A DNA stretch of 58,770 nucleotides, the filler included, from Dugesia japonica (taxonomy: Eukaryota): assembly GCA_001938525.1 (NCBI GenBank). It is 4 parts of 4 records of this genome, joined end to end, with 100 filler letters (N's around TTAATTAATTAA, not from the genome) between each part and the next. Parts side by side here need not be neighbours in the genome. Positions count along the whole stretch, not along the records: positions 1 to 24,069 come from MQRL01563048.1; 3 more parts are not named here. One strand, 5' to 3'. A program made the translations under genes and the position numbers. A model generated the notes under the pieces. It was not told where the DNA came from. It did not search any database and saw only the letters and a list, made by a program, of their open reading frames with translations. Below are positions 13,959-16,900 of the stretch, piece by piece. The stretch's first letter is position 1. The number at the start of each line of letters is the position of its first letter.

Positions 13959-16900
13959 GTGGCTTGGTTTCCTAATAAATGTAATAAGATGAATTTTACA
14001 AAGTGTAAATTATTCGAACCTGTGGGTAAGGTAATTGTTTTCGTCATACTTTGAACCTGGCTCTGAATTGAATATCGCAAAAATTGCACACACTAATTAC
14101 ACTAATTACACACTAATAATAATTTTTATTAATAAAGAAAAATATGAAGATAATTAAGATCATAATAATACTAATTAATTCATACTAAGTGATTGTTGAC
14201 GGTAATTGTTAACGATTATTTAATAATGTTAAATGTAATATGTTGGTCATAAAATTAGTCTTCAGTGATCGATAGAACAATGGTTGATAGTAATATACTA
14301 GAATCGACATAACAACTACACTCATCAATAATAATCATGTCATTGAATGTAACAATATTGGGCATAAGGCCATTCTTATTGAATGTGATTCCGAACTGGA
14401 AGGATAGCTACAGTCATCGAAATACTTGTTAGAAATTAATAAAATTGTACGATCAAGCTTCTTCTCTTCGAAAGGCAAATTGAACAATCTACTGAAAAGT
14501 TCAGTTGAAATGACAAAAAGAGAGTCTTACTGAGTGTTCGTTATATATCTTACATCTGACGAAGTGTATCACCGTGGCAAATATATTTTTTACCATCTTC
14601 TGCAGTGTGTTACATTGATTCGATTTCAATGACGAGAATTAGGTTCTTCATTTCTTTTTCATTGAACAAAATAGGGAATACATCTCAACTATATTCTCCT
14701 AGACAAAAAGAAAAAGAAATTCCATTTTATCGATTTAAATAATCCCTTTGTTGCGCTGATTTAAACAAACTAATCGTCAGTGTCACTCGCACACTAACTC
14801 AGAAATATCATTCCGTTATTTACTAAGGATATTTTGGTACTTTGATTCTTATGATTATCCAATGTTCTAAACATCATCGTTTGTTTATTACACTACCCTT
14901 ACTTGTGCTGGATCGTTAAGCCCGATGCGGTGTGTATATTGCTTATGCCGATGTGGTGTGTTTAAACATTCTAGCAGCTAATGCCTGCTACTGATATATG
15001 TAAGCTAAAAATAGTAACCACGAGAGAGAATCTACTAAACTTAAATGGACTTTTATTTAGTATAGAGATGAAATTCTCGTTTGGTGAATACATGAATAAT
15101 TAGTACAATGTTGAACAGATAATTAATTCCACCAAATGAAAACCAAAAACAAATTTTGATTCAAGAATAATATATTTTAACATTAATAAACAATTATAAT
15201 TCAATATTATAACTATATCGGATAAGAAACATTAATATAAACAGATGCAGTGCTTACTGGTTAATTTACTATCTTCTGCAACGGGTAATCTCTAGGTAAA
15301 TTTGAGGCTTCTCGAATTTGATTAACTGTGATTTTCTTCTGCACAGTCTTTCCTTGGTTTAATCAAATAGTTCTCTTCTATAATTCTATATATCCCGATT
15401 AATTAATACTTCTAAATTCGCGAGCTTACGTTTTTTTAAATAATTAGTTGTCCAAATTTTTCTTTCAAAGTTATATTGTATTGTTTACTACAAATTATGA
15501 AAAGTGATGATTTTCTTCTAAATTTTAGAATGCTTTTATAGGTTTCTGGATGCAACCCGGCATCATTGCTATTGGGTTTCTATTTTAAATTCGAATTCCT
15601 TACTTCTGATTGGTGATGGTGCCAATTTTCAGATTTTTTTATTGATTTTTAGAATTTCCATTTTTGGCTATTTTTAAGTTACCATGTGATCTTCTGTGCT
15701 TTGTTTTATTTTCTTTTTCTGTTCCTTATTGGTTTATTATTCCAACTCTTGTAGGCGTTCTCCTGATAGTGCTAGGATTTTCTTCCTGCAAAATTCTATT
15801 GCCTCTGATCATTTTCTTTTCAGATTTTCTTGCACTTTCCTGAGTGGAGTTATCTGTAAAATCCAGATTTTTGCCTAATTTTAATTTATTTTCCCAATGA
15901 AATTGATTAATTTTCCTTTACCAATTAATTATTATTTTCCTGATCATTTTCTTATTTTCTTTTTACTGATAATAATTTTCTTAATTAATAATTTGGTTTC
16001 GGTCATTATTTTACTTATTTGATGTCTTCATTCAGAATTTCATTCTTTTTTTCGTTTTCTTATCAATAATTATTGTACTCATTCCTAATTGATTATCCTT
16101 TCAACCAAATTTTGATACTATTTTCTTTTTTGAGTCCCTAGTCTTGATCTTCTTCTCAAACCTGATGTTTCACCCCAACATTATTATTATTATTATTTTA
16201 AGTGTTATATACGATCATTAGAAATATTATTAACGATGCTATTATTGTTACAAATATAATCAGTGTAGGCGCCACTACTAATATCAAATTTTGGCTTCAT
16301 TTTATAAGTACGAATTAAGGCGAGCATGTTGCATTTAGAAGACGAGTTGACCCACAGTGAATATTTTCTATTTCCCTATGCAGACACGAACTGTTCAAAC
16401 CTTTTAAATAATTTTAATTATTATGTCAACGATAAACATTCTATTAACTAGGAAATCGATTTTTTCATGTCCGACATTTTAACAAGGACTTTATAAATAA
16501 TTCTGGCAGGAGCGGAAACGTTCTCGAAAAAAGCAATTAATCGGCCATTTACTCTTCCCCAATGTTGTCCTTTCTCCAGAAGAGTTTGATCTCCAAAACT
16601 TCAAAGAATTGTATCCCCTTCCCTGGGAAGTTGACTTGGACGTGGATTACCTTTTGGTGTTTCGCTTTTGAATTCTCTGTAAAATAAATAATCTCATATT
16701 TATACTTCATTTCTCTTTTCACTAACTTTTATCGCTATAATTGCTGTCAAATCAATGATTAACTCATTTCGACTGTTACTCAACTGTTAACTCAAGTCAA
16801 CTGTTACTTATTCAATACATGACATTTTTTATATTATTTAGCACATATTATACATCTTTGACACATNNNNNNNNNNNNNNNNNNNNNNNNNNNNNNNNNN

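Follow-up and report, generated by a model that had tools for sequence, protein, structure and literature searches.

A solo-LTR family of Dugesia japonica with an AUG-poor leader that is likely spliced to alternative cassettes and supplies the start-codon A of those beginning with TG

We analysed a window of 58,770 nt (filler included) that joins four AT-rich stretches of the Dugesia japonica assembly GCA_001938525.1, and searched the whole assembly (854 Mb in 648,594 contigs) for relatives of its repeats. The unit carrying the region at 15250–15620 is a solo long terminal repeat (LTR) of 3.7–4.5 kb from an abundant retrotransposon, in which a leader, an intron, the cassettes c0, c1, c2 and c3 and the LTR end follow each other in this order. 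The minus-strand repeat that holds the leader is bounded by TGTTGGGGT and ACCCCAACA. Here it is represented by copy D, which starts with TGTTGGGGTG at 16180 and lies in two parts. The 5' part (13128–16180, minus strand) comprises promoter, leader, intron, c0 and c1, and the 3' part (7520–8596, minus strand, lower bound approximate) comprises c2 (acceptor G at 8508) and c3 (8008), both broken; no terminal repeat end of copy D was found. Copy D is cut at 13128, between c1 and c2, by the insertion of copy A (8597–13127, minus strand), a nested solo LTR of 4531 bp with the target-site duplication (TSD) CTAT and with c0 at 10860, c1 at 10253 (own ATG), c2 at 9685 and c3 at 9205. A 215-bp near-exact duplication that spans an N gap in copy A (10273–10751) is probably an assembly artefact.

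Copy B (18666–22409, minus strand) is a further solo LTR of 3744 bp with the TSD TTAA, a decayed c2 near 19760 and an open c3 from 19293; no c0 or c1 match was obtained in it. Copies C and E retain 3' portions, namely an open c3 with AG|TG at 23811 (copy C, 23153–23811, minus strand) and c2 (49927), an open c3 (50441) and the LTR end (copy E, 49927–51073, plus strand), while copy F (30389–31263, minus strand) is a decayed 5' part that has no TATAAA at the family position and no strong donor. Copy G (2127–3703, plus strand, 1577 bp, TSD GTAT) belongs to a family of 1.6-kb sister LTRs with the same termini as the cassette LTR. It has CCAAT and TATA boxes, no cassettes and no sense donor, and served as negative control. 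On its antisense strand (2960–2990, minus strand), CCGTTGCAAAA is followed by A|GTAATT; relatives of copy G keep only the GCAACG-like core of this antisense sequence, of which chance is a possible source. Beyond the mapped LTRs, the window contains c0-like and c2-like fragments at 16507–16647 and 5329–5460 (both plus strand), a cysteine-rich ORF of 192 aa with a hydrophobic N-terminus, an internal repeat and no Pfam match (53798–54376, plus strand), and decayed gypsy-like pol and hAT-like sequences (identified by eye) and two DDE_3 transposase pieces (identified with Pfam) at 24170–27100, 31810–32620, 43332–43751 and 49062–49514.

The repeats have TG...CA ends with a short inverted repeat and short TSDs, which are 4 bp long at copies A, B and G and at loci L159, L161 and L167. 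Exact 3' ends number 3,708 genome-wide. Two of 30 fetched 3' ends continue into one common sequence starting with TGG, and 274 conserved LTR-end junctions carry a primer-binding-like site in which TGG begins 7 nt past the LTR end. At locus L174, c0, c1, c2, c3, the LTR end and the primer-binding-like site follow each other in that order. Because of these 3' ends, the 274 junctions and the order at L174, we assign the repeats to LTRs and the window copies to solo LTRs; a reading as DNA transposon was dropped once the 274 junctions had been counted. LTR ends often lie within AAT or AT repeats and often adjoin other LTR ends in head-to-head or head-to-tail orientation (L053, L056, L061, L103 and window position 33957).

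A polypurine tract precedes LTRs that share these termini, and the traceable cases belong to the short sister family only (a first polypurine pattern gave five matches, one of them real). Four post-LTR stretches, scanned in three frames each, had no Pfam match, which leaves the cassette LTR without a link to a polyprotein. The internal end of the sister family matched a protease and zf-CCHC only, and no reverse transcriptase (RT), BIR or MATH domain was seen there. At L209 (477–3614, minus strand), L216 and L211 it encodes an aspartic protease; numerous CCHC knuckles and a coiled coil come next and extend as far as the polypurine tract, and the frames scanned gave no RT or integrase match. To judge by this domain content, the short-LTR sister family is possibly non-autonomous.

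The promoter of copy D lies on the minus strand, with three CCAAT boxes (15732, 15613 and 15575; span 15571–15732) and TATAAA at 15535–15540, +641 from the LTR start. TATAAA is found at +641 in D (15540), +705 in A (12423), +689 in B (21721) and +765 in G (2891), in each case with 2–6 CCAAT boxes upstream, and the distance from TATA to the conserved motif described below is 258, 331 and 296 nt in D, A and B, respectively. This bears out the initial annotation, which had placed TATAAA 640–765 nt from the 5' end of four copies behind several CCAAT boxes. Its four copies are nevertheless two different sets, as the TATA box is present in A, B, D and G and the motif in A, B, D and F.

Copy D has no ATG between 15562 and 15233, an interval that includes its putative AUG-free leader exon (15258–15510, minus strand), the 3' end of which is supported by family evidence and the 5' end of which would lie about 30 nt past the TATA box. 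In 21 rows, which include one false motif call and represent copies that are not phylogenetically independent, the 250 nt before the donor contained 22 ATG where 83.4 were expected, whereas positions −450 to −330, upstream of TATA, were normal (39 versus 38.2 expected) and the sequence just inside the intron had an excess (61 versus 32.2). Other orders of A, T and G were near expectation in the leader, except in its last 50 nt (7.8 versus 15.2), and an earlier set of 16 rows had 8 leader ATG versus 60 expected. Sister LTRs devoid of cassettes have no such donor, and ATG is frequent in them downstream of TATA, with 7–11 occurrences in the following 330 nt in the four fetched relatives that have a clear TATA box. 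The ATG depletion pattern fits one untranslated exon reaching from just after TATA to the donor, and transcription would start about 30 nt past the TATA box.

The sequence TTCTGCAAC (plus strand) occurs in the window at 12084, 15274, 21417 and 30389 and nowhere else, where 0.29 exact matches are expected. The initial annotation had the positions of this motif right; the motif is read on the minus strand, as CCGTTGCAGAA, at 15274–15284 in D and from 12092, 21425 and 30397 in A, B and F. In diverged copies it is found between about +870 and +1040 of the LTR (in one at +1218); A|GTAAG or A|GTAAA comes next, and then T-rich sequence. The donor is inside the LTR, at about +900 to +1100. CCGTTGCAGAA followed by GTAAGT, with the base before GT left free, matched 557 times in the genome, the control not once. 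Among the first 100 matches listed of these 557, counted by eye, the base at −1 of GT is A in 98 and G in 2, so the donor A is conserved across genomic copies, while the spacers between motif and donor in the matches listed vary widely (13–34 nt long). The caution that A before GT is merely common in AT-rich DNA does not account for these counts, since A precedes GTAAGT away from the motif in 25/96 cases in the fetched loci and GTAAG[TC] in 17/32 cases in the window. The internal region has another recurrent donor, CTG|GTAAG in 5/21 loci, so that A is not a general feature of the donors of this family.

All donor-like sites with A before GT that had been noted initially are present (12064 in A, 21383 in B, 15270 and 15258 in D). 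The two sites in D differ in standing: A|GTAAGC with A at 15258 (15252–15258, minus strand) has a 16-nt spacer within the family range, is kept in the relative L047 and is likely the donor, whereas A|GTAAAT with A at 15270 (15264–15270, minus strand) follows the motif by 4 nt, outside the 13–34 nt spacing, and is probably not the family donor. Another relative of D, L044, has neither motif nor donor. The donor of copy B, A|GTAAAA, is weak, has a 34-nt spacer and is kept in three relatives and mutated in L002. Our best guess for CCGTTGCAGAA, given its short and bounded distance to the donor, is an exonic helper of a donor that lacks the usual G at −1; alternatively, it may be a DNA-binding site. 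The motif may resemble Myb or C/EBP sites.

Cassette c0 of copy D has its own ATG and was matched by tblastn at 13776–13958 (minus strand), and c1 of D (13239–13622, minus strand) starts as CAG|TG, with the G of AG at 13622, and has 127 open codons. Cassette products are 115–142 aa long. All 22 of 22 c0 starts are an own ATG. The context AG followed by TG is found at 29/38 c2 and 41/48 c3 starts, the remainder of which includes joined copies and point changes, and at 8/27 c1 starts, most others having an unsplit ATG at that codon. The medians of pairwise dN/dS are 0.31 (c0), 0.30 (c1), 0.14 (c2) and 0.12 (c3), calculated from the unsaturated 19/37, 38/75, 142/313 and 85/356 pairs, respectively; about half or more of the pairs were thus saturated and dropped, and the protein-based alignment favours low dN. 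As judged from these ratios, the four cassette ORFs are under purifying selection. AATAAA follows 7 of the 9 cassettes scanned in the window and is missing from the scanned stretch after c1 of D and c3 of A. A near-length search and a profile search against 1.84 billion sequences returned no homologues of c3, and a near-length search none of c2; Pfam gave sub-cutoff matches only for the cassette products. The predicted c3 model is a single helix at residues 8–90 (pLDDT 81) and c3 is accordingly pictured as a long helix that carries an acidic tail; c2 is predicted to be coiled-coil-like, and the c1 model is unusable (pLDDT 37). The c2 product ends in DKSTQT-like residues (e.g. L133:375–740), which may be a motif for binding dynein light chain.

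In eleven genomic copies the intron is absent, and the terminal A of the leader is joined to the TG of c1, c2 or c3. In L104, which was found unselected, the leader TTCATTTAAGA runs straight into TGGAACAC, the start of a D-type c1, and 15 of 18 of its relatives read A|GT at the joining base. Patterns combining motif, ATG and cassette start gave five matches for c2 and seven for c3, with no match in the controls; tblastn confirmed 5/5 and 5/7 of them, and the c3 matches L166 and L168, which it did not confirm, were discarded as chance. These c2 and c3 searches required ATG, so that deletions at other offsets fell outside them, and L104 alone is unselected. A single degenerate pattern covering all joined forms was too narrow and gave no match, and a loose motif search, in which control matches outnumbered real ones, was used for examples only. 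Among the joined copies are whole solo LTRs with TSDs (L159, 2140 bp; L161, 2033 bp; L167, 1634 bp). Unspliced relatives with A|GTAAG at the joining base were found for L159, L163 and L165 and, more distantly, for L157; altogether, 5 of the 11 joined copies have unspliced relatives reading A|GT, and six are without a close one among the fetched loci. L163 and L165 may represent one event. The leader subfamilies to which D, A and B belong yielded no joined copy.

Four raw RNA runs from three studies (6–25% of each run) were mapped to 10760–22500 at 80% likeness and yielded 53, 213, 81 and 77 reads, all of them partial. Depth was 0–0.2 across the leader of D and 0 across that of B, which is not usable coverage; the only junction, 17509 to 20052 (TA..GA, with AAT filler), is a repeat artefact. 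Among the listed records that carry the sequence, none is registered as RNA.

Because the leader of the intron-less copies has a terminal A and the exons joined to it begin with TG, splicing likely builds the start codon. With these copies the splice, suggestive before, is well supported at the level of genomic sequence, and the proposal of the initial annotation that the leader exon end completes A|TG gains from both the eleven joins and a donor A that is conserved while the spacer varies. We therefore hold it highly probable that the 15250–15620 region is the end of an AUG-poor LTR leader that acts as a shared first exon, is spliced to one of the four cassettes and gives the A of the start codon where the cassette starts with TG. 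The wider proposal, for which we see about an even chance, is that the whole LTR is an alternatively spliced gene cluster with a promoter, a shared A-donating leader and four last exons that are used alternatively, encode proteins without known relatives and lie entirely 3' of the start site. In the shared-first-exon reading, RNA starting past the TATA box would be spliced to a cassette that serves as alternative last exon and ends at its own AATAAA, and the split codon would restrict translation of c2 and c3 to mRNA spliced straight to them. Joined copies would arise when spliced RNA is reverse-transcribed and integrated, with recombination between LTRs at a later stage. Read-through of the 5' LTR could perhaps be enabled by U1 binding at the leader donor, as in foamy viruses, and the cassette products may be accessory regulators of the element.

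Of the other explanations, the one that deserves most attention, albeit improbable, has splicing confined to the 3' LTR of a full-length element, with a transcript arriving from the internal region and the CCAAT/TATA elements not marking the start of this leader exon. An intron lost from the 3' end of genomic RNA would be missing from both LTRs after copying, the joined copies leave the start site unfixed, a conserved donor does exist in the internal region and the RNA runs yielded no 5' ends for the leader. The ATG depletion, however, begins just after TATA and is absent upstream of it, as expected if RNA starts there, and any exon spliced to the leader from further upstream would require an acceptor, of which none is conserved. 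We consider it very unlikely that the joined copies are DNA deletions at microhomology and that A before GT is kept for another reason, such as a DNA-binding site. An AGT microhomology deletion, for which donor and acceptor do share the letters, would leave AGTG, whereas the joins read ATG; this includes the unselected L104, which matters since the ATG in the other searches was selected for. LTR copies carry many other deletions, but the joins are exact on both sides at three different acceptors, the conserved frame begins at the joining codon and c1 alternates between a split and an intact ATG.

Maturation of the cassettes by spliced-leader trans-splicing, with the spliced leader giving the start codon, is the least probable of all. 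Every cassette has an acceptor, and flatworm spliced leaders have a terminal ATG that can serve as start codon (PMC12582326). The conserved frame of the cassettes nevertheless needs one base and not three, in disagreement with the in-frame terminal ATG of the leader that is expected for spliced-leader targets: a leader ending in ATG joined to TG puts c2 and c3 out of the conserved frame, and c3 of copy B would stop after 16 codons. The joined copies, moreover, carry the LTR's own leader. Little credence, finally, can be given to the initial suggestion of TTGCAG|AA as an acceptor that opens a small second exon of the leader, here of 13–34 nt. The CAG of the motif is well conserved and lies at a short, bounded distance before the donor, yet the four joined copies that were aligned to unspliced relatives all retain the sequence 5' of the motif, which contradicts this suggestion; the only gap near the motif is one of 39 nt in L163 that stops 17 nt short of it and has no GT–AG ends. 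The motif also lacks a T-rich tract and an AG-free zone: the 25 nt before its CAG have a T fraction of 0.33 and 0.95 AG per 25 nt, compared with 0.50–0.53 and 0.10–0.28 at the true cassette acceptors of c2 and c3. GTRAG occurs upstream of it in 5/21 rows at scattered distances, so that there is no conserved upstream donor, the upstream leader sequence is ATG-depleted like an exon, and variants without CAG (GCGGAA, GCAAAT) occur. The role of the motif of D would thus be other than that of an acceptor.

LTRs are usually treated as non-coding control regions, and here an LTR carries a selected array of four genes. Gene finders would overlook c2 and c3, which have no ATG in the DNA. The intron-less solo LTRs would be natural records of past splicing that map which parts of the LTR pass through RNA, and through them the start site, the extent of the repeat region and poly(A) read-through become directly testable. 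Should the LTR be a gene cluster as proposed, its terminal repeat would be transcribed over about 3 kb, and each of thousands of solo LTRs would be a self-contained expression unit that could affect host cells after the body of the element has been lost.

Small accessory ORFs that overlap an LTR and are reached by splicing are known from MMTV sag and HIV nef, which are single, lie upstream of the promoter and have intact starts; the LTR described here has four ORFs, and they lie downstream of the TATA box. With its probable splice-built start and four-gene array, the layout resembles complex retroviruses more closely than ordinary gypsy elements. The env start of Drosophila gypsy is made by splicing, the donor side contributing AT and the acceptor side G (PMC2585583; bioRxiv 10.1101/2023.08.03.551782), and springer has an LTR-started leader without AUG before the donor (PMC13097621). 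As far as the available portions of these sources go, gypsy and springer env resemble the planarian family in that an LTR element forms a start codon across a splice junction, evidenced here by the 11 joined genomic copies. They differ in an AT|G split, in a donor downstream of the LTR and in a single target, the env gene that follows pol; the cassette LTR has an A|TG split, the donor and all targets lie inside the LTR, the targets have no significant family match, and up to three split-start targets are accompanied by one with its own ATG. In the foamy virus LTR, the major splice donor lies upstream of the polyadenylation signal and U1 binding permits full-length read-through (PMC3694450). 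The donor of the cassette LTR is likewise inside the LTR ahead of polyadenylation signals, and read-through may be comparable, whereas the foamy virus account, in its available part, describes no gene array between donor and signal. Among planarian elements, Burro/GYPSM1 are giant and gypsy-like, with thousands of copies, accessory ORFs, sizes that imply multi-kb LTRs and a polyprotein of gag, AIR1, Smc, MATH, BIR, BCL2, env-like and PR-RT-RH-IN parts, according to the accessible text of a review (PMC6431247). The cassette LTR family is like Burro in copy number, in LTRs of several kb and in accessory ORFs, and the protease, CCHC knuckles and coiled coil of its sister family recall the AIR1 and Smc motifs of Burro; that text of the review names no LTR-encoded ORFs or splicing. 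Neither did the available parts of PMC8532177 and PMC11952523 hold anything on this LTR layout, and no description of an LTR-internal leader feeding alternative cassettes was found in the literature searched; the original Burro paper, its supplements and Repbase may describe LTR ORFs.
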